DNA of 64,000 bases from an uncultured Caldithrix sp. (GTDB taxonomy: Bacteria; Calditrichota; Calditrichia; RBG-13-44-9), in the NCBI GenBank assembly GCA_964461135.1, contig CAYWTB010000017.1, positions 5,459 through 69,458 of the forward strand, written 5' to 3'. The position numbers were made by a program, and so were the translations under genes. Positions 4,608-33,672 of the stretch are shown here, piece after piece. Below the pieces are notes generated by a model that made no database searches, was not told where the DNA came from, and was given only the letters and a program-made list of their open reading frames with translations. Each line of letters opens with the position of its first letter. Positions within the stretch are counted from its first letter, which is position 1.

Positions 4608-5150
4608 ATGAAAATTTCACGAATGCATAGTACCACAATTCTGGGTATTATCCATAAAGAGCAGGCCGTGATTGCCGGTGATGGGCAGGTTACGTTCAAT
4701 AATACTGTTCTCAAACATGGAAGTGTTAAAATAAGAAGGCTTTATAACGGAAAGATTCTGGCCGGATTTGCCGGAGCTTCAGCTGATGCTTTCGCCCTTT
4801 TCGAAAGATTTGAAGAAAAATTACAGCAATACAATGGAAATCTTACCAGGGCCGCAGTTGAAATGACTAAGGAATGGCGGATGGACAGGTTTTTAAGACG
4901 ACTGGAGGCCATGCTCGCGGTGGTTGATAAAACCACTGCTTTAATTCTTTCAGGCACAGGTGATGTAGTAGAACCGGATGATAAAATTGTAGCCATCGGT
5001 TCGGGAGGACCGTATGCCCTGGCAGCTGCCCGCGCATTGGTTCATAATTCGGATTTGAATGCTCAGGAAATTGTAAAAGAGGCAATGCAGATCGCTTCTG
5101 AAATATGCGTTTATACTAATAATAAAATTACCATTGAAACAATAGATTAG
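4608..5150 (+). CDS. hslV: ATP-dependent protease subunit HslV
   Basis: TTILGI…VIAGDGQVT…[10 protein letters not shown]…GSGGPYA motifs match HslV. The catalytic Thr-Thr is preceded by a short extension (alternative ATG at 4623). Confidence 0.9.
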
Positions 5151-5173
5151 ACGGATGGAATTGGAGGGTTTTT

Positions 5174-8553: not shown

Positions 8554-8616
8554 AAAAAATCATAATTTCGGGTTATTTACTATCGTATTTAAGCATGAAC
8601 ATTAATCTGCCAGGGT

Positions 8617-9846: not shown

Positions 9847-9970
9847 TAATTTTGGATCATTGAAGATAGGAAATAACATAATAAAATGATGTGAAGGTTT
9901 AATTAATTGAAGTAGACTAGAATTGAATAAACAGCTTGACTAATTTTAAATAATATAATAAATTTTTAGT

Positions 9971-10474
9971 TTGATTATGAATATTCCGGTCTTACATCTA
10001 AAAGACGGACTGCACCATTTTAGTGAAACTATTAAAGGCGGTTCTCTTCATTTTTACAGAGATGAAATCTATCCTGAAAATATACAGGTTGAAATAGAAG
10101 TAAATAAATTTGAAAAGAACATCACATGTAAAATTACTTTATCTAGTAGAGCGCATTATCAATGTGACCGTTGTTTAAGGAATTTTGAAAAAAATTATAA
10201 AGACGACTTTGAAATCTTATTTCATCTGGGTGATAAGAATTTTGAAATTAATGAGGAGAGTGTAATAATCATATCATCAGAAGTAAAAGAGATAGATCTC
10301 ACACTTTATATTCAGGAAATGCTTATTCTCGCCATTCCTATGAAATTGTTGTGTGATGAAAATTGTAAGGGAATTTGTTGTGTCTGCGGGGCCGATTTGA
10401 ATACCGAGGAATGTCAATGCACGGAGAAAACTGTGGATCCCCGCTGGGAGAAACTTATATCATTAAGAAAATAA
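9971..10474 (+). CDS. yceD: YceD/DUF177 family protein (23S rRNA accumulation protein)
   Basis: Cys cluster CDRCL…CDENCKGICCVCGADLNTEECQC. Sits in the conserved position immediately upstream of rpmF-plsX. Confidence 0.8.
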   Translation: MIMNIPVLHLKDGLHHFSETIKGGSLHFYRDEIYPENIQVEIEVNKFEKNITCKITLSSRAHYQCDRCLRNFEKNYKDDFEILFHLGDKNFEINEESVIIISSEVKEIDLTLYIQEMLILAIPMKLLCDENCKGICCVCGADLNTEECQCTEKTVDPRWEKLISLRK

Positions 10475-17392: not shown

Positions 17393-18652
17393 TTGGGGAG
17401 ACGTAAATTGAAAATATTTTATGTAAAAATATTTTTACTATTATTTTGCTTCAATATTATATTTGCACAAACCTTTCAACAAAAGAAGGACCAAACTAAT
17501 ACCCAACCTCAGCCACAACAAAAATTTGATATTGATCTCGAACAGCTGGAAAAATCAAGTCAACAGATAATTCCTCAACAACAATATCTGGAAACGGTGT
17601 TGGCGAAAGCCATTGATTCCACAAAATATATATTAGGTCCTGGTGATCAGATATTAATTAAAATATGGGGTCCTCTGGAAAATCAATTTCTTCTGGAAAT
17701 TACTCCGGAGGGATATCTTATCATTCCCACTGTTTCAGATTTAAAGGTATCAGGCTTGACTTTATTTCAGGGTAGTGAATTAGTCAAAAAGATGGTGAAT
17801 GATTTTTATAAGAATGTAAGTTCTTCGGTCCGCCTGGTAAGAATGCGTAAATTTCGTGTTTATATAGTTGGGGAAATCCAAAATCCCGGAACTTATTATG
17901 TTCGCTCAGCTGATCGAATTAGTGATGTTATTGAACTTGCCAATGGTTTAACAGAGTGGGCAGATGATACTCGAATTCAGGTGAAAAGTAGTATCGGTGA
18001 TTTAAATAGTATTAATATCAGTAAATTTTTCGTTTCGGGAAATCTGGATGAAAATCCTACCCTGAACGGAGGGGATATTATTTACATTCCACCCATTGAT
18101 TTGGAAAAAAATTATGTGGTGGTAGAAGGGAATGTTGGATCTGAGGGAATTTATCAGATCCAGCCGGGAGAAAATTTATATACCTTTATGACCCGTATAC
18201 GGGCCATCAATCGAAAATCGAATCTGAATAATGTTATATTGGTCAGAAACGGAGAAAAAGTGATATATGATTTGATAACAGAGGTATCGTTCGTGAAGAG
18301 GGAGGAATTGAAGTCAGGGGATCGTTTGATAATACCATCCAATCGCGATCGGGTATATGTTAAAGGTGAGGTGTATCAAGCTGGTCCTTATCCCTACATG
18401 GCCAATTTCGCCGCCCAGGATTATGCTGGTATGGCAGGTATGCTGGAATCAGCCCAGAGTGTCAACAATATTATTGTTATACGGAAGGTATCTGGAAAAG
18501 TAGAAAAGGGGGGATCAGTCATTGTGGATAAAGGAGATATCGTTGTTGTTCCACAACGAAGTCGGGAGAATACTAAAGATATTATGACTATCTTAACGCC
18601 AATTGTTAGTATCGGATTAAGCACATTTGCAATTATAAGGGCAACTAGATAG
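17393..18652 (+). CDS. wza: Polysaccharide export protein (Wza-like, Poly_export + SLBB)
   Basis: Signal peptide. Has a Poly_export motif ILGPGDQILIKIWG… and SLBB-like GEIQNPGTYYV, with repeated SLBB-like segments (KGEVYQAGPYPY). Confidence 0.8.
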   Translation: MGRRKLKIFYVKIFLLLFCFNIIFAQTFQQKKDQTNTQPQPQQKFDIDLEQLEKSSQQIIPQQQYLETVLAKAIDSTKYILGPGDQILIKIWGPLENQFLLEITPEGYLIIPTVSDLKVSGLTLFQGSELVKKMVNDFYKNVSSSVRLVRMRKFRVYIVGEIQNPGTYYVRSADRISDVIELANGLTEWADDTRIQVKSSIGDLNSINISKFFVSGNLDENPTLNGGDIIYIPPIDLEKNYVVVEGNVGSEGIYQIQPGENLYTFMTRIRAINRKSNLNNVILVRNGEKVIYDLITEVSFVKREELKSGDRLIIPSNRDRVYVKGEVYQAGPYPYMANFAAQDYAGMAGMLESAQSVNNIIVIRKVSGKVEKGGSVIVDKGDIVVVPQRSRENTKDIMTILTPIVSIGLSTFAIIRATR

Positions 18653-18675
18653 AAGAAATAAAAAAAATTATAATT

Positions 18676-19815
18676 ATGAAAAATCAAGAATTAACACCCA
18701 GTTTTCGTTTTATGAAATTGCTCTGGCAAAATCGTGTGTTTATCCTAGTTTTTAGTTTCAGTTTTTTTGTTTTATCAATTATATATAGCCTTTTGCTTCC
18801 TAAGTGGTATGAAGGAAGGGTGGTTTTCATAATAAATGAAGAAAAAAGTTATTTAGGATCGTTTTCTTCATCACTTCTAGGAAATGTTGGACTGCCATCA
18901 AATTTTCTTGGAGATTTTGCTAAACCTCTTTCAGAACAGTACATTAATTTTTTACAATCCCATTCAATTTTGGATAAAATTGATTCTATTTATAAACTTC
19001 AGGAAGCTTATGAAATAAAATATAGGAAAAGTTTTTATAGAAGAATATTATCTAATGCTAGATTCGTGGATAATAATGATAATTCAATAACTATCTATTT
19101 TTATTACAAAGAGGATCCTGATAAAGCTGCTTCAATTGCAAATTCATTTTTTATTGAATTAGAAAAATTAGTATCAAAATTACGATCAGAACGAAATGAA
19201 AAAATAAAAAATTTTCTTGAAAGAACTTATACAGAAACAATTGATAAGTTAGTTGATGCTGAAGAAAAAATGAAAAAATTTCAGTTAAATAATAAAGTTT
19301 ATTCTTTAGATGATCAAGTTAAGTTAGTAATTCAAAATATTTCAGAATTGGAAGCACAAAGAATTCAATTAGCCATTCAGAAAGAATACTTGGAATCATC
19401 TGGAGCAAAAAATACGGTAGAATATCAAGCACTGATTAATAAGATTATCATATTAAATAAATCAATCAACTCGCTTAAAACAAAAAGCGAATATATTGAT
19501 GTGCCTTTAGAGGATTTACCTTTAAAAGGACTCGAATATATAAGAATATTGAGAGAAATTAAAATTAGAGAAAAAATCTTGGAATTCGTAGTTCCACAAT
19601 TAGAAAATGCAAGGATGCAAGAATTCAGAATATCATCTACCCTTCAATTATTGGATTCCGCAGTTCCTCAAGACTATAAATCGAAACCCAAAAGAATAGT
19701 TATTGTTTTTGTGGTTACTTTTTTTGCCTTCACATTCTCAATTTTATTTTTACTAATAAAAGCGTTTATTAGAAATAACCGGCGTTCATTAACCCAAGTT
19801 TTTAATAAAGAATGA
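18676..19815 (+). CDS. wzz: Polysaccharide chain-length determinant (Wzz/PCP-family, no kinase domain)
   Basis: N-terminal TM after LLWQNRVFILVF…, a long coiled periplasmic region, and a C-terminal TM (PKRIVIVFVVTFFAFTFSILFLL). Confidence 0.65.
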   Translation: MKNQELTPSFRFMKLLWQNRVFILVFSFSFFVLSIIYSLLLPKWYEGRVVFIINEEKSYLGSFSSSLLGNVGLPSNFLGDFAKPLSEQYINFLQSHSILDKIDSIYKLQEAYEIKYRKSFYRRILSNARFVDNNDNSITIYFYYKEDPDKAASIANSFFIELEKLVSKLRSERNEKIKNFLERTYTETIDKLVDAEEKMKKFQLNNKVYSLDDQVKLVIQNISELEAQRIQLAIQKEYLESSGAKNTVEYQALINKIIILNKSINSLKTKSEYIDVPLEDLPLKGLEYIRILREIKIREKILEFVVPQLENARMQEFRISSTLQLLDSAVPQDYKSKPKRIVIVFVVTFFAFTFSILFLLIKAFIRNNRRSLTQVFNKE

Positions 19816-21101
19816 TTTACTTGAATGTTTCTCGTCAGGGGGCAAAGCTTTTTCCTTTAATACTCTTTATTATAATTTGGGTGTCTCAGGTATTTTTTTA
19901 TTTTTTAAATCCCTTTTATTATAAAGAAATAACTTTCTATACTTGGATTATTATTTTCATAGGTGTTTTTTCTTTTATTACTGGATATCTAACCTCATAT
20001 TTCTTCAAGTTTGATCGTCATTTGGTTATCAACAACTCAAACGATACTGTTAATAAATTAAATTTCCCAAGCTCAAGAATAAGAAATTTAATAATTCATA
20101 TTTCCATAATTGTTATATTTGCTATGTTTTTTGATGTAGTATTAATAATAAGTACGATTAAAAAATATAATCTCGATCCAACGAATATTTTTTGGTATAG
20201 GTTAATTTATTCCACTTTTGCACGTAATTTAACTCGCTGGAATTTTATTCACTCAATTTTGAACTATTTAATTACACTAAATTTAGTCTCAATAATTTTA
20301 TCAGCTATTTATTCCGCGATATATAAAGGCAAAATGTCTGTAACCATGTTACCGTTATTGCTTGCATTAACGTTCAGTATTATAACCCTGCAGCGATATC
20401 TTTTTACAAGTAGTTTAATTATATGGCTAATCAGTTTTTTCTTTGTTAGTTTCAATTTACCACTGTCTGAAAGAATAAAAACATTAAAGAGATTTGTCGA
20501 ATATATTGGCATTATGGTAATAATTATAGCTACTATCCTAATTCTAATAATAAGCATAAGAATTAATATAGATTTAGGAGGTGTTAAAACAGTTGAATTG
20601 ACAAAATACGTATTTAAAAGTATTTATACTTATTTTGTTGGAAACATTGTTGCTTTAGACAATTACTTACAGAGGGACATTTTGTACAAATATGGTGCAG
20701 AAATTTTTCAGAGTGTCTTCAAATGGCTCGGTAGACTTGGTTTAATAGAGTCAAAATCTATTTCAACACAATATTTAGAATTTACAGATATAGGAAATTA
20801 TACTGTAAATACTTATACATTTATTAGAAATTTCTATGAAGATTTTGGTGAAGCAAGCCTTGTAACATATGCTTATTTATGGGGCTTTATTACTTCTTAT
20901 GCCGTTGAAAAATTATTTCAGAAATTTTCCTTTGCACGTTTGTTTATTGCTAGTTATTTAGTCTTTGCTCTTTTTATTTCTTTTTTTAGTTTTGTACTTT
21001 TAAATATCTCAATGTTTTTTCTTCTAGTAATTTATTCTTGGATCATTGGAAAAATTCTTACCAATCAATATTTAAATAAACTATCAAATGAGTATCACTG
21101 A
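19812..21101 (+). CDS. Wzy-like repeat-unit polymerase / O-antigen-ligase-like polytopic membrane protein
   Basis: 429 aa, about 10-12 TM helices, low complexity. 4-nt ATGA overlap with wzz. Located between Wzz and Wzx. Assignment is by context and topology only. Confidence 0.45.
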   Translation: MIYLNVSRQGAKLFPLILFIIIWVSQVFFYFLNPFYYKEITFYTWIIIFIGVFSFITGYLTSYFFKFDRHLVINNSNDTVNKLNFPSSRIRNLIIHISIIVIFAMFFDVVLIISTIKKYNLDPTNIFWYRLIYSTFARNLTRWNFIHSILNYLITLNLVSIILSAIYSAIYKGKMSVTMLPLLLALTFSIITLQRYLFTSSLIIWLISFFFVSFNLPLSERIKTLKRFVEYIGIMVIIIATILILIISIRINIDLGGVKTVELTKYVFKSIYTYFVGNIVALDNYLQRDILYKYGAEIFQSVFKWLGRLGLIESKSISTQYLEFTDIGNYTVNTYTFIRNFYEDFGEASLVTYAYLWGFITSYAVEKLFQKFSFARLFIASYLVFALFISFFSFVLLNISMFFLLVIYSWIIGKILTNQYLNKLSNEYH

Positions 21102-22512
21102 ACACCAAATTAAATCTTTTCTCAAATTTACTTCAGTTAATATTTTAAGAAATGCTTTAGGTTTAATTAGATCTAAAGTAATTGCTATTTGGTACGGTGG
21201 TCTGGGTGTTGGGATATTGGGTCAATATGTATCATTCTTTAATCTGCAATCAAAGATTTTATTATTTGGAGCAACAGCTAGCATTATTAATTCTCATAAT
21301 AAGGCGATTAGAGAAAGCTGGAATAAACAGCTCGTTCTTTTATATCATTTATTAATAATTTTAGTAACAAACATTTTAGGTGGTTTATTCTTAATTTTAT
21401 TCTCCAATAAAATTTCAACCTTGATTTTTGATGGATTAGTTGATAACAATTTTGTTTTTTTAATGGTTTTAGTCGGATTAATCTACTCAGCTGGGATGTA
21501 TTTAGAATTATTGGTACAGGCTAGAAAAGAGTTTTCAAAATTATTTAAAGGACAAGTCTACTCTTCAATATTTGCAATTTTAACACTAATTCCGATAATT
21601 TTTATATTTGGCATTAAGGGTATTTTATATAATTTTATAATATTTTATTTAATAAGTTTTCTTTTTTTTTTAAGTACATCCGCACTTGATATTCATGAAC
21701 TTTCCAGAAATCACGTTCAATTAAATATTAAAATATTAAAATATATATTAAAGGTTTCTTTAATTGATATTGCTAGATCGATTTTAGTGATTGGTTCACT
21801 ATTAGTTGGGAGAATTTTCATAGTTAAAATAATTGGAATACAAAAAACAGGTTATTTACAATCCATTCTTAGTATTACCAATTATATAAATGTTCTATCA
21901 ATGGGTTTTATGATATATTATTTTCCAACAATAAGTTCAAAATTAAAAACAGATGATTTTTCAAATGAATTTAATTCTGGTTTTAAACTACTTATTTATT
22001 TTGTATTTCCTTTTATTATTTTAATTTATTTATTCCCTGATATCTTTATAAAATTATTATATACAAAAGAGTTCTTAATAGTAAAAAATTTTTTACCCAT
22101 ATTAATGATTAGTAAAGTGATAGAAATATACAATTATTTTTATGGTATAAATTTTTTAGGAACAAATAGATTAGGAAATTTTATTTTATTAGATGGTCTT
22201 AAATCAATTATTTTTCTTTTATTATTAGCAATTTTATTGTCTAAATTTCAAATAATAGGAATTGTATATTCTTTTCTTGGCGCTGAAATTACAGCCTTCT
22301 TATCTCTAAAAATAATCTTAAAAAAGATCACTCAACTTCAATTAAAAAGGGAAAATAATATCTTGTATTATAAAATTCTATTACTATTAATTTTATTAAA
22401 TTTCCTTGATATTAATATTTTCCTTAAAATTCTTATATCCTTATCGTATTCCATTTTGCTTCTCGATCTAAAAACTTATTTTGAATTAATTTCAATATTT
22501 AGAAAAAAATAA
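21088..22512 (+). CDS. wzx: Wzx flippase (MOP/polysaccharide biosynthesis protein family)
   Basis: 474 aa, about 12-14 TM helices. N-terminal KFTSVNILRNALGLIRSKVIAIWYGGLGVGILGQY is typical of Wzx. Confidence 0.7.
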   Translation: MSITEHQIKSFLKFTSVNILRNALGLIRSKVIAIWYGGLGVGILGQYVSFFNLQSKILLFGATASIINSHNKAIRESWNKQLVLLYHLLIILVTNILGGLFLILFSNKISTLIFDGLVDNNFVFLMVLVGLIYSAGMYLELLVQARKEFSKLFKGQVYSSIFAILTLIPIIFIFGIKGILYNFIIFYLISFLFFLSTSALDIHELSRNHVQLNIKILKYILKVSLIDIARSILVIGSLLVGRIFIVKIIGIQKTGYLQSILSITNYINVLSMGFMIYYFPTISSKLKTDDFSNEFNSGFKLLIYFVFPFIILIYLFPDIFIKLLYTKEFLIVKNFLPILMISKVIEIYNYFYGINFLGTNRLGNFILLDGLKSIIFLLLLAILLSKFQIIGIVYSFLGAEITAFLSLKIILKKITQLQLKRENNILYYKILLLLILLNFLDINIFLKILISLSYSILLLDLKTYFELISIFRKK

Positions 22513-22518
22513 GAATAA

Positions 22519-23682
22519 ATGAATATTCTACTTATCAGTTTTGAATTTCCCCCACAGCCTGGTGGCATAGGGACATATAGTTATCAGATTGCAAAAAATC
22601 TACATTATCTTAATAACAATATAACAGCTTTAGTTAATACAAATTTAATGTCTAGAGACGAGGTTGAAAAATTTGACAATTTCCAGGAATTCAACATTAT
22701 AAGATTTAAAAATTATAAGAATAAAGTTTTTAAAATTATACACAGAATATTCTTTTCATGCAAAGTCTTTGAATCTAAAAAATATGATTTAATTTTTATT
22801 ACTTATTCTCATGCTGGTATTATTGGAATAATTGGGAAATATTTATATAAAATTCCATACATTATGATGGGTCATGGTTCCGAATTTTTATATAAAAATA
22901 GATATTTGAATTTTTTTATTAGGTTATTTTTTAACTGTTCTGATTTAATTTTTGCAAATTCTAAATTCACAGCAGACTTAATGAGAAATAGAGGTATAAT
23001 TAATAAAAATTTGAAGGTTATTCCATTAGGAGCCGATGAAAAACTTTATGATAAAAATAGATATAATCCCGATTTGTTAAAGAAGAAATACGGTTTTGAG
23101 AAAAGACAAATCATTTTAACAGTGGGAAATCTATCGATAAGAAAGGGGCATAAGTATGTTATTGAGGCAGTACAGATCTTAAAAGATGATTTTCCAAATA
23201 TTCTTTATTTAATTATTGGGAGGGGAAAAGAAAGAGAATATTTAGAGAGCTTAATCGAAAAATATAATTTACATGATTATGTTAAAATAATTGGATTTGT
23301 ATCCACAGAATTGCTTCCAGAATATTATGCATTGTGCGACTTTTTCATTTTGAATAGTACTAAAGCACCAAATGGGGATGTTGAAGGTTTTGGCATTGTG
23401 CTTGTTGAAAGCGGTTTGATGGGTAAACCGGTAATTGGAACAAAGGGTTGTGGTATAGTTGAAATTATAGAACATAACAAAACTGGTTTATTAATAGAAA
23501 AGGATAGCATAAAAGATACCACTTCTGCTATTAGGGTCTTATTAAAAGATGTAAAACTCAGAAAATCATTTGGCCAAAATTTCTATTTAAAGGCTATAAA
23601 AACACTGACATGGAAAGCTGTGGCTCATAACACAAACAATGAAATTAATTCATATTTTGCTAAATATTCCACAAAAAATTAG
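22519..23682 (+). CDS. Glycosyltransferase family 4 (GT-B)
   Basis: MNILLISFEFPPQPGGIGTY… N-terminus. C-terminal EGFGIVLVESGLMGKPVIGT motif (glycos_transf_1). Confidence 0.82.
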   Translation: MNILLISFEFPPQPGGIGTYSYQIAKNLHYLNNNITALVNTNLMSRDEVEKFDNFQEFNIIRFKNYKNKVFKIIHRIFFSCKVFESKKYDLIFITYSHAGIIGIIGKYLYKIPYIMMGHGSEFLYKNRYLNFFIRLFFNCSDLIFANSKFTADLMRNRGIINKNLKVIPLGADEKLYDKNRYNPDLLKKKYGFEKRQIILTVGNLSIRKGHKYVIEAVQILKDDFPNILYLIIGRGKEREYLESLIEKYNLHDYVKIIGFVSTELLPEYYALCDFFILNSTKAPNGDVEGFGIVLVESGLMGKPVIGTKGCGIVEIIEHNKTGLLIEKDSIKDTTSAIRVLLKDVKLRKSFGQNFYLKAIKTLTWKAVAHNTNNEINSYFAKYSTKN

Positions 23683-23689
23683 TAGTGCA

Positions 23690-25945
23690 ATGCCCTTCAA
23701 AATTTTATTTTTTGCTAATACTTCATTCATCGGTGGCGCCGAACGAAATATTTTAGATCTTGCGAATAAATTAAATGAAAAAGGTCATGATATATCTATT
23801 GCAAGCTTAGAAAGAGGCGGTCCTTTATTAAAAATGGCAAAGATTAATGGAATCAGGACATTTGATCCTGATTTCAAATATTATTTTAGCCTTTCTTATA
23901 TAAAGAATATATATTCTTTTTTAAAATTAAATAATTTTGACTTTATTTTTATATATGGTCTAAAATTAAAAGTTATTCTAATACCTTTAGCCTTTTATCA
24001 TAGAAAACTGGTAATTATTTCTATGATCTTAGGACTTGATGTTTGGAAAAAGAATGTTCGTATAATTGTAGAAAAAATATTGATACCTTTCACCTCATTT
24101 TGGATCTCAAACTCCATTGCAGCAAAAGAAAATTCCATTAGAAGGGAAGGTACACCCCAGGATCTTATTTATGTAATTTACAACGGATTACCTATAAATT
24201 GTGGTATTAAAAATAAAACAAAAAAAAAGGAAAAGAGAAAAGATTTTAAAATCATAACTCTAGCAAATATTCAAAAAAACAAGGGGCATTACTTCTTTTT
24301 GAAAGTTATAAAAAAGGTAATAGAAATTGATCCGAATATAACTTTTAATTTTATTGGTAAAGATTTTACAAATGGTGAGATTCAGAAAGAAATTAAACGG
24401 TTTCAATTAGAAAATAATGTTTCTTTATCCGGATTTATTTTTGATGTGCGATCTTATATACATAATTATGATCTAATGGTTTTACCTTCATTTTCTGAAA
24501 GTCTTCCAACTTCTATTATTGAATGTATGCTTGAAGGAGTACCTGTACTTGCAACAAGAGTAGGTGGTATTCCTGAAATTATTAAAAATGAAAAAACAGG
24601 ATGGCTTGTAGAAGCAGGTGATGAAGAATCCTTTATAAAGAAAATTATTACCATAAAATACAACGAGAAAAAAAGAAATGAAATTTCAAATAATGCTTAT
24701 TTATATGCAATTAATAAATTTAATATTGACAAAATATCTACTGATTACGAAAGATTATTGCAATTATATATTCCAAAAAAGGACGCGTCCAAGAACAAAT
24801 TCAGAATTATGAGGGTTCAATCCCGAATTGTAGTAGGTGGACCGGCCCTGCACACCATTCTGCTCTCCCGGGCTTTGAATAATGATCGCTTCCAGACGGT
24901 GCTGGTGGGTGGTGCTAACAAATCTTCAGAAAAAAGCCTAGTAAAGGCTGCCAGGAATCAAAATATCAGATGTTTTATAATTCCTGAAATGGCCAGGGAA
25001 ATTCATTTCTATGATGACATTATTTCTTTTATTAAACTTTATCGGCTAATCAAAAGAGTGAAACCTGATATTTTTCACTCCCATACCTCGAAAGGTGGGG
25101 CCATTGGACGGTTGGCTGCCTATTTGGCCGGGGTTCCGATAATTTTTCATACATTCCATGGCCATATATTTGAAGGTTATTTCGGAAGAACGAAGAGCAT
25201 TGTCTTTATATGGCTTGAAAAATTACTGGCCAGAATATCAACCAATATTATTGTGATCAGTGAAAGTCAAAAAAAAGACATTGTAAAAAAATACAGAATA
25301 AATTCTAACCACAAGACCAAATTGATCCCGCTGGGATTCGAATGGTCAGGTTTCTTTCACGAAGACAAAAATGTGAATTTCCGTAAACAATTCAATTTAC
25401 CGGAAAATAAGTTCCTGATTGGCAGTATCGGACGGATAGTACCCATCAAAGATCATGCACTATTTATTAAAATTGCCCACCAATTAATTCAAAAGCATCC
25501 ATCAAAATTTCATTTTGTCATTATCGGTGATGGTGAACTTCGTGAAGAAATGGAAACAGACCTGGAGTTAAAAGGTATCCGAAATTATTTTACTTTCACG
25601 GGATGGTGGAATACTAATGTAAATATCTATCAAAACCTCGATCTTCTGCTGCTTACTTCCCAAAATGAAGGTACACCTGTTGCTGTAATAGAAGCCCTGG
25701 CCTCCGGAACGCCGGTAATCGCCTCAGCTGTAGGAGGTGTGCTGGACGTCATGTCCAAATATTGTCGGGAATTTGCTGTTGCCGACAGAGATCCAGCAAA
25801 ATATGTAGTGATGATCGAAAAACTTTATAATTCCAGGGTCACTGTGCCTGCAGAGACCAGTCGGTTTATCAGAAATTATTACAGTTCCGAGAGACTGATC
25901 CGCGATATGAAAGAGCTGTACCTCCAAAGAATTAACGACTCCTGA
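23690..25945 (+). CDS. Two-domain GT4-GT4 fusion glycosyltransferase
   Basis: Continuous 768-codon ORF (23639..25945; probable ATG at 23690). Residues 1 to about 385 form a complete GT4 (…SESLPTSIIECMLEGVPVLATRVGGIPEI…). Residues from about 391 (MRVQSRIVVGGPALH…) form a second complete GT4 (…EGTPVAVIEALASGTPVIAS…). Base composition switches from AT-rich to GC-normal at about 24780. Confidence 0.75.
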   Translation: MPFKILFFANTSFIGGAERNILDLANKLNEKGHDISIASLERGGPLLKMAKINGIRTFDPDFKYYFSLSYIKNIYSFLKLNNFDFIFIYGLKLKVILIPLAFYHRKLVIISMILGLDVWKKNVRIIVEKILIPFTSFWISNSIAAKENSIRREGTPQDLIYVIYNGLPINCGIKNKTKKKEKRKDFKIITLANIQKNKGHYFFLKVIKKVIEIDPNITFNFIGKDFTNGEIQKEIKRFQLENNVSLSGFIFDVRSYIHNYDLMVLPSFSESLPTSIIECMLEGVPVLATRVGGIPEIIKNEKTGWLVEAGDEESFIKKIITIKYNEKKRNEISNNAYLYAINKFNIDKISTDYERLLQLYIPKKDASKNKFRIMRVQSRIVVGGPALHTILLSRALNNDRFQTVLVGGANKSSEKSLVKAARNQNIRCFIIPEMAREIHFYDDIISFIKLYRLIKRVKPDIFHSHTSKGGAIGRLAAYLAGVPIIFHTFHGHIFEGYFGRTKSIVFIWLEKLLARISTNIIVISESQKKDIVKKYRINSNHKTKLIPLGFEWSGFFHEDKNVNFRKQFNLPENKFLIGSIGRIVPIKDHALFIKIAHQLIQKHPSKFHFVIIGDGELREEMETDLELKGIRNYFTFTGWWNTNVNIYQNLDLLLLTSQNEGTPVAVIEALASGTPVIASAVGGVLDVMSKYCREFAVADRDPAKYVVMIEKLYNSRVTVPAETSRFIRNYYSSERLIRDMKELYLQRINDS

Positions 25946-26058
25946 TATGAAAATCCACAAATCAATCTCATAAATTACTGAATTTTAATCCATTAATTTT
26001 TAACCGATTTGAATTTTTTTTAGACTAAAAGATTTTATGTAAAAATTGCGAGAAAAGT

Positions 26059-27948
26059 ATGTGTGGTATCAATGGAATATTATCCCAAAAAAGTATTAAT
26101 CACAAAGAAATTCTGCTTATGAATCAAAAAATTAATCATCGTGGCCCGGATGATGAAGGGACCTTCAAACACCAAAACATATTACTGGGTTCACGACGAT
26201 TATCTATCATCGATTTACAGGATGGTCATCAACCGATTTTCAATGAGGATAAAACTCTGGTTATTGTATTCAACGGAGAGATATATAATTATAGGGATTT
26301 ACGCAAAAATTTAATTGATAAAGGTCACCATTTTAAAACGCATTCGGATACGGAGGTTATTCTCCACCTGTATGAAGAAAAAGGAGCAGCCTGTCTGCAT
26401 AAATTGAATGGAATGTTTGCTTTTGCTATTTATGATATCAGAAATAAAGAATTGTTCCTGGCCAGAGACCGTCTGGGCAAAAAACCATTGTTTTACTGGA
26501 AGGATCAGGACCAATTTGTATTTAGTTCAGAATTAAAAGCCATTCTTCATGCCTTCCCTCTCAAGCGGTCTATCTCTGTTGAAGCACTTGAACTCTATTT
26601 CGCATTGACCTTCATACCTGCTCCCTTCACAATCTTTGAGGACATCTTTAAATTAGAAGCCGGCCATTACATGAAAATAAGTGCTGATCTCCAATATGAT
26701 ATTAGTCAATACTGGAAGATTGATGGCGACGATTCCGAATCCTCTAACTCTTTAAATTTGGGAAACCATAAGAAAAAAATCATAGAATTACTCTCTGATG
26801 CGGTTGAATTGAGGATGATATCAGATGTGCCGTTAGGAGCGTTTTTAAGCGGAGGAATAGATTCTTCGATTATTGTGGGATTAATGAGTGAAATCTCCGG
26901 AAAGAAAATTCAGACCTTTACTATCGGAAATAAAGAAAAGTCATACGATGAATCAGCAAAAGCTGAATTTGTGGCAAAATATTTTAAAACGGATCATCAT
27001 ACTTTTATCATACAAGATGATGATTATTTATCAATTTTAGATCGGGCGATAAATGATTTTGATGAACCTTTTGCAGATTCTTCAGCTCTGCCAACCTACC
27101 TTGTATCAGAATTTGCCCGCCAGCAGGTAAAAGTAATATTAACCGGGGACGGAGGAGATGAAGTTTTTGCAGGCTATAACCGCTACCTTGTATTTAAGTA
27201 TCTTGAAAAATATATGCTGCTACCCTTGATAGTAAGGAACTACATTATCAGACCAATATTCAATAATTTGCCGGTTTCCAGTAAATATAGAAAATTTGTT
27301 AAAGTTAAAAAGATTGTTAATAATGAAGGAAAAAATATTTTTGATCAATATCATGCCATGCAGCGTCTGGGATTTTCGGAAAGAGACCTGGCTGATATTT
27401 TGTTGGATAATAATAAATCAGATTACACAAGGTCCTTCGTATATGAAAAATATAATATGATTAATTATGCTTCAAACCTGAATAAGATTTTACAAACTGA
27501 TCTTACGATAGGCCTGGAAGGTGATATGCTGGTAAAGGTAGACAGGATGTCCATGCTGAATTCTCTGGAAGCCAGATGTCCTTTTTTGGATTACCGTTTA
27601 GTGGAATATTCTTTTAAAATTCCTGCCGAATTAAAATTATACCATGGTCAATTAAAATACTTGTTGAAAGAGTGTTTCAGAGAAAAAATCCCGCCTGGGA
27701 TTTTAGCTGCGCCTAAACAGGGTTTTGAAATACCAATCGGAAATTTTATCAGCAATCAATTACAGCCTAAAATCCAAAATTTTTTAAAGTCCGATCTCTT
27801 AAATACTTTAAGATTGGTTGATTTAAATAAAATAACAAAAATCAATCAGAAACATCTGTTAGGAATTGATAAATCTTTTCAGCTATGGACCTTTTTTGTT
27901 TTCGCTAATTGGGTGGAAAATTTCCAGAATTTTATCGAAATAAAATAA
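26059..27948 (+). CDS. asnB: Asparagine synthase (glutamine-hydrolysing)-family amidotransferase (AsnB/WbpS-like)
   Basis: MCGI N-terminal nucleophile Cys2. GATase-II domain and SGGIDSS PP-loop ATP pyrophosphatase motif. 629 aa. Confidence 0.88.
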   Translation: MCGINGILSQKSINHKEILLMNQKINHRGPDDEGTFKHQNILLGSRRLSIIDLQDGHQPIFNEDKTLVIVFNGEIYNYRDLRKNLIDKGHHFKTHSDTEVILHLYEEKGAACLHKLNGMFAFAIYDIRNKELFLARDRLGKKPLFYWKDQDQFVFSSELKAILHAFPLKRSISVEALELYFALTFIPAPFTIFEDIFKLEAGHYMKISADLQYDISQYWKIDGDDSESSNSLNLGNHKKKIIELLSDAVELRMISDVPLGAFLSGGIDSSIIVGLMSEISGKKIQTFTIGNKEKSYDESAKAEFVAKYFKTDHHTFIIQDDDYLSILDRAINDFDEPFADSSALPTYLVSEFARQQVKVILTGDGGDEVFAGYNRYLVFKYLEKYMLLPLIVRNYIIRPIFNNLPVSSKYRKFVKVKKIVNNEGKNIFDQYHAMQRLGFSERDLADILLDNNKSDYTRSFVYEKYNMINYASNLNKILQTDLTIGLEGDMLVKVDRMSMLNSLEARCPFLDYRLVEYSFKIPAELKLYHGQLKYLLKECFREKIPPGILAAPKQGFEIPIGNFISNQLQPKIQNFLKSDLLNTLRLVDLNKITKINQKHLLGIDKSFQLWTFFVFANWVENFQNFIEIK

Positions 27949-28243
27949 TATAGCATGCAATTATAATCTTTGTACTGTTGTCTCATTGTTCACAAATAAT
28001 ATGTCGCAGAATACTCTAATAAAATTATCTGGAAAATTTTAATTTTGAGCAGTACTGAAATAACCGGATATAAAACGAAAACTTATCTTTCAATAAATTA
28101 AGAATCCGTTCTGATTATGATTTATTCTCTGATTTTTAGTTTGGGTTATTTTTTAAAAAAACCGTTATCATTAAAATAATTATCACTTTTCGCAAGATAT
28201 ATCTGGTCATAAATTACACTCCGTACTTAAACATCTATACAAA

Positions 28244-29359
28244 ATGCATATACCTTTTGTTGATCTTAAACAACAATACCTTTCAATTCAGCGGGAAATA
28301 AAGCAGGAACTGGAAAACGTCTGCCAGAATGCCAGCTTCGTACTGGGGCCTTTTGTCAGGACTTTTGAGGAAAATTTTTCAAAATTTATAGGGATTAAAC
28401 ATACCATCGGCCTGAATTCCGGCACCTCCGCGGTTCAGTTGGCGGTGCAATCTTTCATTTCACCCGGTGATGAAGTAATTACGGTCCCCAATACGTTTAT
28501 CGCCACTACCGAAGCCATTACCGCCGCCGGGGGCAAAGTAGTTTTTGTGGATATTGAAGGAGAATCCTTCAATATGGATCCGGCAAAACTGGAATCTGCG
28601 ATTACACCCAGAACGAAAGTCATTGTCCCGGTCCATCTCTTCGGTCAACCGGCCGACATGGATCCGATCCTGGAAATCGCCCACAAACATAAAGTATTTG
28701 TGGTTGAAGATGCTGCCCAGGCCCATGGTGCGGAATACAATGGGAGAAAAGCAGGAAGTCTTGGTACGGCCGCGGCATTTTCGTTTTATCCCGGAAAAAA
28801 TCTGGGTGCCTATGGCGAGGGAGGCGCCATTACAACCAATTCAGATGATATTGCCGGCTTCGTTAAAATGTACCGAGACCATGGCTCCCGGGAAAAATAT
28901 ATACACGAGTTTGAAGGGCATAATATGCGCATGGAAGGATTTCAGGGTGCGATCCTGTCCGTTAAGCTGAAATATTTGGAAAAATGGAATAATGCCCGTC
29001 GCAATCATGCCAGGCTGTATAATAAATTATTAAGAGATGATCCTTCCGTAATCACGCCCTTAGAAATGAGTTATGCAAAGCATGTGTATCATCTGTATGT
29101 AATCCGGGTGCCAGACCGCGAAAAATTGCAGCAGTACCTGAATGAAAATGGAATTAGTTCCGGATTCCATTATAAATATCCCCTGCATTTACAGAAAGCT
29201 TATCAGTACCTGGGGCATATGCAAGGTGATTTCCCGGTTACGGAAAAGGTGATGAATGAAATTATCTCCTTACCCATGTACCCGGAATTAACTGAAGATC
29301 AGATTGAGTATGTTGTGCATCATGTAAAAAAATTTCATAAAATCAACAATTGCTCCTGA
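28244..29359 (+). CDS. DegT/DnrJ/EryC1/StrS-family PLP-dependent sugar aminotransferase (WbpE-like)
   Basis: MHIPFVDLKQQY…GTSAVQLAV… is the typical family N-terminus. Has a conserved Lys region (SFYPGKNLGAYGEGG). Confidence 0.88.
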   Translation: MHIPFVDLKQQYLSIQREIKQELENVCQNASFVLGPFVRTFEENFSKFIGIKHTIGLNSGTSAVQLAVQSFISPGDEVITVPNTFIATTEAITAAGGKVVFVDIEGESFNMDPAKLESAITPRTKVIVPVHLFGQPADMDPILEIAHKHKVFVVEDAAQAHGAEYNGRKAGSLGTAAAFSFYPGKNLGAYGEGGAITTNSDDIAGFVKMYRDHGSREKYIHEFEGHNMRMEGFQGAILSVKLKYLEKWNNARRNHARLYNKLLRDDPSVITPLEMSYAKHVYHLYVIRVPDREKLQQYLNENGISSGFHYKYPLHLQKAYQYLGHMQGDFPVTEKVMNEIISLPMYPELTEDQIEYVVHHVKKFHKINNCS

Positions 29360-29383
29360 CGATTTAAATTAAGAGGCTTTTAC

Positions 29384-30391
29384 ATGATAAACCTTGGTGT
29401 AATTGGGGTAGGGTATTGGGGACCTAATATTATTCGGAATGCCGTATTAAATAAACGATTTAAGATGAGTTGCTGCGCGGATTCAAAACCGGAAAGGCTA
29501 GATTATATTAGCGCTCTATATCCCACAATTAAAACTTCACCAAATTATAAAGAGATTATCGACGATTCGTCCATTGATGCGGTGGCGATATGTACCCCGG
29601 TTTTCACCCATTTTGAGATTGCTTCGGCCGTTCTGCAGGCGGGAAAGCATATTCTAATTGAAAAACCTATGACAGGAACCTCAGCGGAAGCGCAGCAGTT
29701 GCTTGAATTAGCTGAGAAAAATAAATTAAAGATATTGGTGGATCATACCTTTCTGTTTACCGGAGCAGTACGCAAGATTAAAGAAACTATTAAAAGCGGA
29801 GAAATCGGGGATATTTATTACTTCGATTCGGTACGAGTGAACCTGGGACTATTCCAGCATGATGTCAATGTGGTATGGGATCTGGCACCACATGATATAG
29901 CTGTCATGGATCATCTCATTGACAGGAAGGCGGAAAGTATTGTGGCAACAGGTTCGGATCACCTCGGCAATGGCCTTGAGGATGTTGCCTTTGTTACCGT
30001 TTTTTATCCGGATAATATCATTGCCCACATTCATGTGAATTGGTTATCACCGGTTAAGATCAGACAGACCCAGATCAGCGGAACCAAAAAAATGATTGTG
30101 TGGGATGACAATTCCCCCAGTGAAAAGGTTAAAATTTATGATAAAGGAATAGAAGTCATACAGACTGCCGACCAGGTTTATAATACGCTTGTGCAATACC
30201 GCACGGGGGATATGTACTGTCCGAAAATCCCGCAGAGTGAAGCTCTGGCGGTTGAGATGGATCATTTTGCCGATTGTATTGAGAAGAACATTACACCAAT
30301 ATCTGATGGATATTCCGGATGGCGGGTGGTGCAAATACTGGAATCATCCGAGAAATCGATCAAACACAGAGGCAGGGAAATCAGATTATGA
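29384..30391 (+). CDS. Gfo/Idh/MocA-family sugar-nucleotide dehydrogenase (WbpB/GnnA-like)
   Basis: Rossmann motif GVIGVGYWG, the EKP motif (ILIEKPMT) and 335 aa. Sits immediately between the aminotransferase and the acetyltransferase. Confidence 0.85.
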   Translation: MINLGVIGVGYWGPNIIRNAVLNKRFKMSCCADSKPERLDYISALYPTIKTSPNYKEIIDDSSIDAVAICTPVFTHFEIASAVLQAGKHILIEKPMTGTSAEAQQLLELAEKNKLKILVDHTFLFTGAVRKIKETIKSGEIGDIYYFDSVRVNLGLFQHDVNVVWDLAPHDIAVMDHLIDRKAESIVATGSDHLGNGLEDVAFVTVFYPDNIIAHIHVNWLSPVKIRQTQISGTKKMIVWDDNSPSEKVKIYDKGIEVIQTADQVYNTLVQYRTGDMYCPKIPQSEALAVEMDHFADCIEKNITPISDGYSGWRVVQILESSEKSIKHRGREIRL

Positions 30392-30855
30392 AATTTATCA
30401 GCATCAGCGATGACGTTGAACTCGGTCAGGGTGTTAAAATTTATAATTTTGTGAACCTGTATGGATGTAAAATAGGGGACAATACCAAGATCGGAACTTT
30501 TGTGGAAATACAGAAGGGGGCCACCGTGGGTAAAAATTGCAAAATATCCAGCCATACCTTCATCTGTGAGGGGGTTCATATTGAAGATAACTGCTTTATC
30601 GGGCACAATGTGACTTTTATAAATGATAAATACCCCCGCTCCACCAATGAAGATGGCCGCATGCAAACGGAGGAGGATTGGCAGTGTGTGCCAACCTTTG
30701 TGCGACGGGGAGCCAGCATCGGCAGTAGTGCCACCATACTCTGTGGTGTAACCATCGGGGAGAATGCCATTGTGGGTGCGGGAGCAGTCGTAACCAAAGA
30801 TGTTCCCCCTAATATCACCGTGACAGGAGTACCCGCCAGGACTATTAAAGGCTAG
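30388..30855 (+). CDS. Hexapeptide-repeat (left-handed beta-helix) sugar N-acetyltransferase (WbpD-like)
   Basis: ATG at 30388 overlaps the upstream stop (ATGA). Has repeated [LIV]G-x4 hexapeptides (IGDNTKIGTFVEIQKGATVGKNCKI…). 155 aa. Confidence 0.8.
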   Translation: MKFISISDDVELGQGVKIYNFVNLYGCKIGDNTKIGTFVEIQKGATVGKNCKISSHTFICEGVHIEDNCFIGHNVTFINDKYPRSTNEDGRMQTEEDWQCVPTFVRRGASIGSSATILCGVTIGENAIVGAGAVVTKDVPPNITVTGVPARTIKG

Positions 30856-30927
30856 CTTTCGGTTATGTATTTAATTCACCTGCCCGTCACTTCGGTCAAT
30901 TCAGTTTCGATGGCAGTTTCACATTAA

Positions 30928-30956
30928 AGGGGAGATCCAAATTATCCCCTTTTTTT
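30928..30956 (+). terminator. Possible rho-independent terminator
   Basis: AGGGGAgatccaaattaTCCCCT followed by TTTTTT. Confidence 0.5.
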
Positions 30957-31128
30957 CATGAATGAACAATTAACACATATCTGATGGTCTTTATTTCGAG
31001 TAATACAATTTTCGGATAGTGGTCCAACCATATCACGGAAAATAAGGACATTCTTCTTGTTTGATTCATAATCCCTCTTTAAATTTAACTTTCGTAAATA
31101 TAAGATTTGACTGAATTTCACCGTATCA

Positions 31129-33663
31129 ATGAATTTTTTTATTATTTTTCTTTCAGCATTCATTTTATCTCTGGTCGCCGTATATGCAATAAAACGGATC
31201 GCCCTGAGGTTAAAAATTGGTTCTTTACCTTCGCCTCGCAAACTTCACCGGGGATTCAAACCTCTGCTGGGAGGGGTTGGTTTCGCTATTGCCATATTAT
31301 TGTCAATTTTGATTGGACAATTGATTGGCCTCCTTCCCCGGGAAGTCTGGATTCAGTATAAATATTTCTGGACGGGTTTTTTTATTGTGTTGCTTACCGG
31401 GATTGTGGATGATGTCGGTGGTATTTCCTCCAGAATAAAGTTTTTAGGGGAAGCCACCGGGGCCATCCTGTTAATATTAGGTGGCTGCAAGATTCAATCC
31501 TTCAGCGGTTCCATCGGTGAGGTTTTAAATCTGGGAATATTTTCCATACCATTCACCTTCCTCTGGATTATTTTTATTATTAACGCTATCAACTTATTGG
31601 ATGGTCTGGACGGCCTGGCTGCAGGTGTTGGTTTCCTTATTACCACCGGTATGATTATCATCGGAATAATGATAAATGGCATTTTTTTGGTGGTCCTGGG
31701 ATTGGGGCTTGCAGGAGCTTTACTGGGTTTCCTGAAATATAATTATCATCCTGCCTCTATTTTCATGGGAGAGGCGGGAAGTCTGCAGCTGGGTTACCTG
31801 CTGGCTTTCTTTTCCATTGAGAATCTCAAGGTAGCCGGAAGTCACCAAATCTATTTTATGGTGGCACTGGTTCTTTTCTGTGTACCCATGACGGACACAC
31901 TGGTGTCTTTTCTCAGAAGACTGGGACAGGGCCATAGTCCCTTTCTCGCAGATAAGGAGCATATACATCACCGCCTGCTGAAATTAGGTCTCTCCCATCT
32001 TCAGACCGTCTGGTTAATGTATTTTCTGACCTTTTTTTATGTTACTGCCGGTGTTTTAATTTTTTATTTTAAGGGATTCCTGGGATTAATTTTGTTCGGA
32101 ATTGCCTTCTTTCTGGCAGTTTTCTGGATTTACAGATTGGGTTATGTGGAGACCAGGTTTTCCTGGCAGAAATTTGCACATCAGTTCCAGCAAATGGTAA
32201 TCGTTAAAGCCCGAGCTCCACTTCACTTTAACCGAATCTGGCATCGTCTCATCCTGATTATCAGTGACGTTCTCACCGTAAACTTTGCCTTATACTCCAT
32301 GCACTGGTTTAAATTTGAATCAGGTGTTTTTGCCCAGTCCACCTATCGCCCCATTTCTGACTATTTCTTCAGCCCTGTTTTTCTTTTCCTTTTGCTGGCC
32401 TGGATATTTCTGTTTTTTGTTAATAATCTGTATCAACTGGACTGGGATATCTCCCGTTTCGAAAAAACCTGGCGGGTATCTAAGGTAATTACCTTCGGAA
32501 TCATACTTCTGGGTTTATTAACTATTGATTTCCGACGGCTCATCAGTGAATCCCAACTTATATCGCTTCTGGGTTACTGGATAATGATGATAATTTTTGT
32601 AAATACCGGTCGTTTGATAATAATTGGGATTGAAAAGAGGCTTCGTATTTTCGAATATTCTCCCCGCAAAACTCTGATCATTGGTCTAACGGATCTAGCA
32701 AAAAAAGTTTACAGGGATATTCAATATAATCCTCATCTAATCTTTGATGTAATTGGATTCGTAGCTAAAAAATCGAAGGAAAATACATACCTGGGATTGC
32801 CGGTCCTGGGCAGTTATAGGGATTTGCCGGAAATAATTCACCGCTATAAAATTCAGGAGGTAATTATTGCCTTGCCGGAGAGTTCCAGTCAGGATTTTAT
32901 CAATATCCTGGGTTTGTGTGAGCCGCAAGGAGTAAAAATTAAAACCTTGCCGGGGCGGCAGGAATTTTTATCTTCACAACGGCTAAATCTGGTTAGCCAC
33001 AGTTTTATCCAACTTTTCACGGAAAGTATGGTGCTGTGGCAATGGGTTATTAAAAGACTGGTTGACCTGCTGCTTTCCCTGATTTTTGTGATTCTGCTTT
33101 CTCCGTTCCTCCTGGCGGTGAGTATAATTCTGGTTTATTATTTCAGGAAATCTGTACTGGTAAAGGTACCGGTGATGGGAGAGAATGGTATTCCCTTTAA
33201 CATGTATGTTTTTCGTCTTACCGGGAAAAATTATGATTATCAGGATAATGCTATTTATCTGGGCACTGATCCCCCGGCTGCGGACGCTGCAGGATTTATC
33301 TTGTTTTTATTCAGGTACAGATTTTATAAATTACCTCAACTGCTGAATGTTTTTCTCGGTGATATGAGTATTGTAGGACCGCGGCCCGAACCGATCGAAT
33401 GGTATCAGGAATTCAGCCCTCTGGTTAAATTTCTACACCGCAGGATTATGGTCAGACCCGGTCTCACCGGTCTGGCCCAGGTAAAGTATCATTATGAACT
33501 TTCCCAGAAAAAATTACAGGAATGGGCGAGATTTGACATGTATTACACTGAAAATTTATCTCTGCGGATGGACATGGGGATACTTATACGAACTATTCTG
33601 ATGATTTTTGTCAAACCTTATCAGAATTCAAAAAAAGAAAAGGTGCGGATCCCGGGGCTTTAA
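31129..33663 (+). CDS. Fusion protein: N-terminal WecA/MraY-family polyprenyl-phosphate N-acetylhexosamine-1-P transferase + C-terminal WbaP-type PGT scaffold with degenerate active site
   Basis: Residues 1 to about 345 carry the PNPT motifs IVDDVGG, NAINLLDGLDGLAAG, PASIFMGEAGSLQLGYLLA and KEHIHHRLL. Residues about 350-600 hold TM helices and a CoA-binding-like Rossmann segment (LIIGLTDLAKKVY…VIIALPE). Residues about 610-844 form a Bac_transf domain (GDMSIVGPRPEP, RPGLTGLAQV). In that domain the residues preceding LPQL are YK instead of the catalytic DE. Confidence 0.75.
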   Translation: MNFFIIFLSAFILSLVAVYAIKRIALRLKIGSLPSPRKLHRGFKPLLGGVGFAIAILLSILIGQLIGLLPREVWIQYKYFWTGFFIVLLTGIVDDVGGISSRIKFLGEATGAILLILGGCKIQSFSGSIGEVLNLGIFSIPFTFLWIIFIINAINLLDGLDGLAAGVGFLITTGMIIIGIMINGIFLVVLGLGLAGALLGFLKYNYHPASIFMGEAGSLQLGYLLAFFSIENLKVAGSHQIYFMVALVLFCVPMTDTLVSFLRRLGQGHSPFLADKEHIHHRLLKLGLSHLQTVWLMYFLTFFYVTAGVLIFYFKGFLGLILFGIAFFLAVFWIYRLGYVETRFSWQKFAHQFQQMVIVKARAPLHFNRIWHRLILIISDVLTVNFALYSMHWFKFESGVFAQSTYRPISDYFFSPVFLFLLLAWIFLFFVNNLYQLDWDISRFEKTWRVSKVITFGIILLGLLTIDFRRLISESQLISLLGYWIMMIIFVNTGRLIIIGIEKRLRIFEYSPRKTLIIGLTDLAKKVYRDIQYNPHLIFDVIGFVAKKSKENTYLGLPVLGSYRDLPEIIHRYKIQEVIIALPESSSQDFINILGLCEPQGVKIKTLPGRQEFLSSQRLNLVSHSFIQLFTESMVLWQWVIKRLVDLLLSLIFVILLSPFLLAVSIILVYYFRKSVLVKVPVMGENGIPFNMYVFRLTGKNYDYQDNAIYLGTDPPAADAAGFILFLFRYRFYKLPQLLNVFLGDMSIVGPRPEPIEWYQEFSPLVKFLHRRIMVRPGLTGLAQVKYHYELSQKKLQEWARFDMYYTENLSLRMDMGILIRTILMIFVKPYQNSKKEKVRIPGL

Positions 33664-33672
33664 TTCTTCTTA

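Follow-up and report, generated by a model that had tools for sequence, protein, structure and literature searches.

A composition break at the seam of a predicted two-unit GT4 glycosyltransferase gene in a polysaccharide locus of an uncultured Caldithrix sp.

The O-antigen and capsule loci of Salmonella, Escherichia coli, Yersinia pseudotuberculosis, Streptococcus pneumoniae and Klebsiella are mosaics, in which a set of wzx, wzy and glycosyltransferase genes low in guanine plus cytosine (GC) lies between conserved genes, with the junctions inside the cluster and no mobile-element genes. The low-GC central blocks of such loci are exchanged by recombination, as described in the work of Reeves and colleagues. 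Recombination junctions that flank a divergent central block within polysaccharide gene clusters have been documented (PMC5399914), and enzymes with two domains of glycosyltransferase family 4 (GT4), such as WbdA, are known (PMC7820976). Here we describe a 64,000-nt stretch of DNA (the window) from an uncultured Caldithrix sp. (contig CAYWTB010000017.1 of assembly GCA_964461135.1, positions 5,459 to 69,458), in which a gene at 23690-25945 on the plus strand is predicted to encode two complete GT4 units, and changes its base composition between them.

The locus resembles the mosaic O-antigen and capsule loci in its low-GC set of wzx, wzy and glycosyltransferase genes between conserved genes; it differs in that one junction lies inside an open reading frame, exactly between two catalytic units, and in its host, an uncultured Calditrichota-like bacterium. 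The WbdA-type bifunctional O-antigen glycosyltransferases of E. coli O9a and of the Pseudomonas syringae common polysaccharide antigen (PMC7820976) likewise hold two complete GT4 modules in one polypeptide, and two successive glycosyl transfers in polysaccharide assembly are presumed in both cases. However, WbdA is a polymerising mannosyltransferase of ATP-binding cassette (ABC)-transporter (Wzm/Wzt) pathways, whereas the window gene sits in a Wzx/Wzy-type cassette; no specific relationship to WbdA in sequence turned up in NCBIfam or PDB searches, and no direct comparison with the WbdA sequence was made. A further likeness is to the TIGR03088 (stp2) and TIGR03108 pair of XrtA/PEP-CTERM exopolysaccharide loci. 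The C-terminal unit aligns end to end with TIGR03088 and an AsnB-like amidotransferase encoded downstream with TIGR03108, and this adjacency of glycosyltransferase and amidotransferase recurs in several phyla. Both window proteins score far below the curated cut-offs (140.6 vs 409 bits for TIGR03088; 564.8 vs 816.9 for TIGR03108), and no XrtA/PEP-CTERM components were seen in the annotated part of the window, although no search aimed at them was made.

The gene, its two units and the seam between them are as follows (GC3, GC at third codon positions).

23690-25945, plus strand: two-unit GT4 gene, 751 residues; an alternative ATG at 23639 gives 768 residues
23690-24781, plus strand: N-type GT4 unit, residues 1-364; GC 0.263, GC3 about 0.18; EX7E motif E270-E278
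24782-25945, plus strand: C-type GT4 unit, residues 365-751; GC 0.403, GC3 0.40; EX7E motif E660-E668
24760-24814, plus strand: seam and composition change point, maximum-likelihood position 24781, between K364 and D365; holds the palindrome GGACGCGTCC (24781-24790)

The open reading frame listing gives a single frame of 768 residues (23639-25945), or 751 residues if started at the ATG at 23690. The latter start aligns with that of homologue P0002, and 751 residues is the length of the NCBI/JGI protein P0001. An earlier note made from the letters alone (the sequence-only reading) had combined the 768 codons of the longer start with the coordinates of the shorter one; both figures are real and the mixture is harmless. 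Its recognition of two full GT4 units in one frame was upheld, as Pfam matched Glycos_transf_1 and Glyco_transf_4 twice each (PF00534, 212 bits; PF13439, 112 bits; two stretches each), and the AlphaFold model, with a predicted local distance difference test (pLDDT) score of 87.8, comprises two GT-B units linked by a short segment. Residues 363-367 form the sole interdomain stretch of the model with a pLDDT below 50. Structural similarity search using Foldseek revealed HepE (Alr3699; PDB 4xsp) and BshA (PDB 5d00) as the top matches, with template modelling scores of 0.84-0.87, normalised to these single-unit target chains, and 22-23% identity. Both are solved single-unit GT4 enzymes that use other acceptors, and are uninformative on the substrates of the window protein. 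Each unit possesses both Rossmann-type domains of the GT-B fold and an EX7E motif, consistent with membership of CAZy family GT4; in an 11-sequence family alignment, E270, E278 and E668 do not vary, and the conservation of E660 is at least 90%. As both motifs are conserved and both GT-B units complete, the N and C units both look catalytically competent. Overall, the gene is real and intact, and its predicted product consists of two complete retaining-type GT4 units of GT-B fold.

Base composition changes abruptly between the two units. Divided at the in-frame ATG at 24809, the N part (23690-24808) has a GC of 0.267 and a GC3 of 0.193, and the C part (24809-25945) a GC of 0.403 and a GC3 of 0.393, the mean GC of the whole window being 0.383. 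The maximum-likelihood change point falls at nt 24781, with a 2-log-likelihood interval of 24760-24814 and a log-likelihood gain of 25.1, compared to a maximum of 8.4 among 300 codon shuffles (0/300 reach 25.1). This is exactly where an abrupt switch had been claimed from the letters, and the GC profile is accordingly non-uniform, with a step from 0.27 to 0.40 in GC and from 0.18 to 0.40 in GC3. Third codon positions alone reproduce the break, after codon 363 (interval 346-365; GC3 0.179 before and 0.401 after), which shows that it is not an effect of amino-acid content. The fused orthologues in five homologous loci (L002, L003, L004, L005 and L007) are compositionally uniform, with change-point gains of 2-3.5 and GC values from 0.26 to 0.43 that track their own loci; thus the family is not intrinsically two-toned, and among the fused copies examined the window gene alone is mosaic.

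The break coincides with the ends that the two units have as separate genes. The stand-alone N-type proteins P0182, P0183 and P0185 stop 13 residues past a conserved Tyr, at a position aligned with window D365, and most stand-alone C-type proteins begin at a position aligned with D365/A366; the break lies within 1-2 codons of both. Since it falls between K364 and D365, the low-GC DNA stops at the place expected for the end of an N-type gene, and host-like DNA takes over at the place expected for the start of a C-type gene. The seam, counted from the Tyr to Gln-Ser, spans 26 residues, the length found in the fused family, and joining in frame the abutting genes of locus L094 would give 29. The fused proteins are essentially full-length units concatenated end to end, which weakens the case for a single fusion event drawn from their equal seam length. 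The ATG at 24809, taken in the sequence-only reading as the start of the second unit, was rejected as an internal or relic start: the Met is not conserved, homologues having V, L, I or M at this position; the start of most stand-alone C-type genes lies about 8 codons before it, at D365/A366; and the sole Shine-Dalgarno-like sequence found by eye, AAGGA, is too far away, at about 25 nt upstream of the ATG. The change point also carries the perfect 10-bp palindrome GGACGCGTCC, which contains a MluI site and is unique in the window; as one or more matches turn up in 35 of 100 shuffles, it is not significant.

The N unit belongs to a low-GC block of ~6.2 kb (about 18.57-24.78 kb) that also holds wzz, wzy, a wzx-like gene and a single GT4 gene, all with GC values of 0.22-0.28 and GC3 values of 0.16-0.22. 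The surrounding features are listed below.

17393-18652, plus strand: Wza-like protein for polysaccharide export across the outer membrane, flanking the block on the left; Pfam Poly_export and SLBB; GC 0.371; 52% identical to its L088 orthologue
18553-18667, no strand: left composition change point, maximum-likelihood position 18569, in the wza 3' end and wza-wzz spacer
18676-19815, plus strand: chain-length protein similar to Wzz and polysaccharide copolymerases (PCP); Pfam Wzz and GNVR; GC 0.272
19812-21101, plus strand: Wzy-type repeat-unit polymerase; NCBIfam TIGR04370, 90.2 bits vs a cut-off of 40; GC 0.263
21088-22512, plus strand: candidate Wzx-like flippase; GC 0.225; 45-48% identical to its positional counterparts in L002 and L007
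22519-23682, plus strand: single GT4 glycosyltransferase, from Pfam; GC 0.276; 51-58% identical to its counterpart in L002, L003, L004, L007 and L088
26059-27948, plus strand: AsnB-like glutamine amidotransferase, from Pfam; GC 0.344; TIGR03108, 564.8 bits vs a cut-off of 816.9
28244-35808, plus strand: conserved core of DegT aminotransferase, GFO/IDH oxidoreductase, hexapeptide acetyltransferase and fusion proteins of 844 and 711 residues; 67-82% identical and collinear in L091, L092 and L093

The candidate flippase gene has no Pfam match and only a weak match to WzxE (36 bits vs a cut-off of 325). A single GT4 gene directly precedes the GT4 pair here and in all related cassettes. The sequence-only reading had described the whole upstream cassette as equal to the N unit in AT-richness, which is correct for wzz, wzy, the wzx-like gene and the GT4 gene but not for wza (GC 0.371), the block beginning at the wza/wzz boundary (18569). 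Of the features of a Wzx/Wzy-dependent locus, the window encodes Wzy, Wzz/PCP, Wza of the outer-membrane polysaccharide export (OPX) type and an initiating phosphoglycosyl transferase (Bac_transf in the 844- and 711-residue proteins), and no ABC-transporter genes occur among the annotated open reading frames of the polysaccharide locus (17393-38811). No integrase or transposase genes were found in or beside 17393-27948, where tRNA genes were not scanned for; candidate flanking repeats around the block were AT-rich chance matches, none meaningful, and no insertion sequence elements were found. Of the marks of a mobile genomic island, the block thus shows neither the integrase or transposase genes nor the flanking repeats. 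A similar block of wzz, wzy and part of the single GT4 gene lies at 1729-5030 in L088, with a GC of 0.35 compared to 0.44-0.50. Its left end is also at wza/wzz (1729), as is that of the low-GC block of L003 (5523), and its right end lies inside the single GT4 gene at ~5030 (interval 4763-5178), which indicates that mosaic boundaries vary between genomes.

Several observations on the locus stand apart from the seam. A 20-nt near-identical repeat, AAAA[T/G]ATTTTATGTAAAAAT, occurs at 17411-17430, at the wza 5' end, and at 26027-26046, 32 nt ahead of the start codon of the asnB-like gene; either a regulatory motif common to both genes or coincidence between AT-rich sequences could account for it. 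The 844-residue open reading frame (31129-33663) combines a WecA/MraY-type Glycos_transf_4 domain with CoA_binding_3 and Bac_transf (WbaP-type phosphoglycosyl transferase), two initiating-transferase types in a single protein being unusual, and the 711-residue open reading frame (33673-35808) combines GT2, CoA_binding_3 and Bac_transf. Both fusions are kept across Calditrichota and KSB1 metagenome-assembled genomes (MAGs), with 185 matches at E<1e-50, and are collinear in L002 and L091-L093. A second gene pair of envelope-polysaccharide type and lower GC (0.35-0.38), at 7534-9846 upstream of a plsX-fab cluster, encodes a GNAT/FemAB-like acetyltransferase and a Polysacc_synt (Wzx-type) protein.

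Homologue search with the whole protein revealed the full-length two-unit proteins P0002-P0007 (45-54% identity), whose loci share the cassette order Wza, Wzz, Wzy, sometimes Wzx, single GT4 and two-unit gene. The pair is fused in L002, L003, L004, L005, L007 and L088, and probably also in the fragment P0336; in L094 it is split into an N-type gene (48% identical) and a C-type gene (52.5% identical), the TAG stop of the first sharing 1 nt with the GTG start of the second. An exhaustive HMMER search found the stand-alone N-type orthologues P0182-P0185 (40-49% identical), and a query with the C unit found about 20 stand-alone C-type clusters (49-62% identity). Fusion as the ancestral state, with the N-type occurring only fused, was an interpretation withdrawn once these stand-alone forms were found. 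The homologue search seems to favour proteins of query-like length, as the 751-residue query gave no single-unit relatives above 35% identity and a 388-residue query missed its own protein. In L009 and L010, a stand-alone C-type gene (57-58% identical) has an unrelated GT4 gene upstream and an AsnB-like gene downstream, to which that of the window is 55% identical; the C-type/AsnB order is the same in the window. A metagenome scan for the contexts of close stand-alone C-type genes gave, among the matches listed, only relatives of at most 44% identity. Identification of a donor from per-half and sliding identities was uninformative, the relatives all being ~50% identical with similar rank orders.

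In neighbour-joining trees, the only kind built, the N and C orthologue clades have bootstrap values of 100% and 98%, respectively, internal support is modest (35-68%), and fused and split forms are interleaved in both clades, which indicates that transitions between the two states are easy and evidently frequent. The window N unit groups with the fused genes of L002 and L007 (68% bootstrap), and the C unit with the stand-alone P0330 (62-63% identity, 65% bootstrap). With both units inside the orthologue clades and a single GT4 gene directly upstream, the window gene is a member of the pair. Judged by sequence, the N-type and C-type units are conserved partners, fused or encoded by abutting genes, in Calditrichota-like and other uncultured bacteria; as the pair is adjacent by conservation, fused in at least seven other lineages and split in others, an accidental fusion of neighbours finds no support in the form first proposed.

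Further observations concern relatives of the C unit. The 148-nt spacer between the upstream GT4 gene and the stand-alone C-type gene of L010 (11110-11258) contains the GC-rich hairpin CCCCGCCCCGGAAGGCCGGGGCGGGG, and is missing from the otherwise near-identical junction of L009. Distant C-type GT4 units (35-41% identical) occupy the C-terminal end of ~770-810-residue frames in L013, L014 and L017, two of which are Cloacimonadota MAGs, and the upstream part of the L013 frame is an unrelated GT4 that is 26% identical to the N unit. The relatives in L011, L022 and L027 are two separate adjacent genes, and comparison of the two groups suggests that C-terminal fusion of a C-type GT4 occurred more than once. 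AsnB-like genes adjoin C-type GT4 genes in several phyla, downstream in the window (26059-27948), L009 (2293-4188) and L010 (12457-14367), and directly upstream in Flavobacteriales and Bacteroidales MAGs (L025, L036, L046, L076 and L078, at about 8000-10000).

The closest genomes, all Calditrichota-like and ranked by the 844-residue protein, are L091 (74% identical), L092 (complete genome CP070707; 68%) and L093 (67%); Caldithrix, Calditrichia and KSB1 are the named relatives among the matches of this protein. All three share a collinear core with the window at 57-82% identity, comprising DegT, the GFO oxidoreductase, the hexapeptide acetyltransferase, the 844-residue and ~705-residue fusions, GT9, GT2 and an MrfA-type helicase. 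The core of L002 is 60-83% identical to 28244-35808, the GFO oxidoreductase there being a 49-residue remnant. The common flank of the window and L091-L093 begins at DegT (28244). Upstream of it, the C-type GT4 and AsnB genes are absent from all three genomes, the genes in their place differ per genome, and the low-GC block from wzz to the N unit is absent as well; the variable region of the window is thus wzz to AsnB (18676-27948), and its two layers of different composition adjoin within the two-unit gene. To the left, synteny with L010 covers fabG, fabF and rnc, and synteny with L003 the latter two genes. With conserved genes on both sides, the locus is a chromosomal hot spot between rnc and DegT. 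The sequence-only reading had seen here the right-hand boundary of an acquired cassette, fused to a resident GT4 gene. The seam is indeed the right end of a compositionally foreign block that is absent in L091-L093, but the second GT4 gene cannot be called a conserved resident, as it and AsnB are missing there, the shared flank starts only at DegT, and GC is its only host-like property. A stand-alone form of the second GT4 does exist in L009, L010 and the about 20 clusters, but L091-L093 are without it.

We consider it more likely than not that the seam is a recombination joint, formed when modules were exchanged in this variable polysaccharide locus. We infer the recombination event itself, its direction, with the low-GC block incoming, and the enzymatic roles. 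In this serotype-type module swapping, a 6.2-kb low-GC module (wzz, wzy, the wzx-like gene, GT4 and the N unit) would have been swapped in upstream, joined to its surroundings between wza and wzz on the left and at the seam between the two GT4 units on the right; the C unit, together with the AsnB-like gene, forms the side of host-like composition. Both units would stay functional only if the joint fell within the unstructured seam of ~11 codons, and this would account for its exact position. By family membership, the enzyme would be bifunctional, each unit transferring a single sugar to the lipid-linked repeat unit from which a surface polysaccharide is made by the Wzx/Wzy pathway, and would act together with the single GT4 encoded upstream and the phosphoglycosyl transferases encoded downstream.

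Several findings weigh against this module exchange. No donor or close allele was found, and all relatives of either unit in the searched collections are at most 63% identical, so that the event is read from composition and patchy distribution only; homologous recombination between sequences so divergent would be inefficient. At internal bootstraps of 35-68%, the trees demonstrate no conflict between the placements of the N and C units, neither mobility genes nor flanking repeats mark the block, and the absence of the C unit and AsnB from the nearest genomes means that "host-like" refers to GC alone. As to the fusion, its presence before the exchange is favoured by the fused nearest kin of the N unit and by the 26-residue seam of the fused family, and its origin in the joint by the stand-alone nearest kin of the C unit, the stand-alone C-type and AsnB genes of L009/L010 and the frequent changes of state. 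In its strict form, the first reading has a foreign cassette ending in a stand-alone N-type gene land upstream of a stand-alone C-type gene with AsnB that had no earlier N partner, the joint removing stop and start to make a fusion de novo. We regard this as rather unlikely. Stand-alone genes of the kinds it needs exist, in P0330, in L009/L010 and in P0182-P0185; the break lies within 1-2 codons of their stop and start positions; and the interleaving in both trees speaks for easy transitions. Yet the N unit groups with the fused L002/L007, a seam made by a simple join as in L094 would be 29 rather than 26 residues long, and a C-type unit follows the N-type in every close cassette with context, which makes the encounter with an unpaired C-type gene a coincidence.

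An artefact of assembly is also improbable. The independent Logan assembly of run SRR9710702 (L001) matches window 22890-28365 with 0 mismatches, which makes a missed stop or a mis-join unlikely; the frame is open through 24770-24815 in both assemblies, which bears out the fusion without a stop in the linker read from the letters. A chimera, in which a short sequence common to two co-existing populations led to their reads being joined and the gene occurs in no cell, is very improbable, even though the contig is metagenome-derived, polysaccharide loci vary between strains and chimeric joins typically show abrupt switches of composition. Host-level GC on both sides of the 6.2-kb block would require two such joins, both at gene or unit boundaries; moreover, the independent contig spans the seam, the frame remains open and the seam has the length typical of the family. 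The chance is slighter still that a stop or frameshift was missed at the seam and that two abutting genes are really present. Consensus errors do happen in metagenomes, and the split form of L094, with its 1-nt overlap of TAG and GTG, is only a few nt away from the fused form, but the two assemblies are identical, there is no homopolymer tract at the critical codons, and seven other lineages have the same open seam. Vertical inheritance without transfer, the low GC from wzz through the N unit arising by local mutation or selection (e.g. low expression), has likewise a very small probability. Related cassettes are indeed poorer in GC than their flanks, by 5-20 points, in L003, L004, L005, L088 and L091. 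However, the halves of one open reading frame are transcribed and translated together, yet within a few codons GC3 steps from 0.18 to 0.40; composition is uniform in the fused orthologues examined, and the nearest genomes carry entirely different genes at this position.

Module exchange with a joint at the seam would neatly illustrate processes already known rather than reveal a novel type of system, and leaves the current view of polysaccharide locus evolution unchanged. The gene provides an internal control for the question of why variable polysaccharide genes are AT-rich: as its halves share a promoter and an expression level and differ two-fold in GC3, different ancestry is a simpler explanation than an expression-linked bias. 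The position of the seam is a natural design point for engineered chimeric bifunctional glycosyltransferases. For the poorly studied phyla concerned, Calditrichota and relatives, the locus documents a conserved GT4 partner pair, fused and split, often near an AsnB-type amidotransferase. We further suggest, tentatively, that the unstructured seam could be a natural shuffling point, at which N and C units of different lineages are recombined and the pair flips between split and fused forms. If so, combinatorial assembly would yield new two-step glycosyltransferases and, through them, new polysaccharide structures, and the window would hold the first copy caught with both parental compositions still visible.

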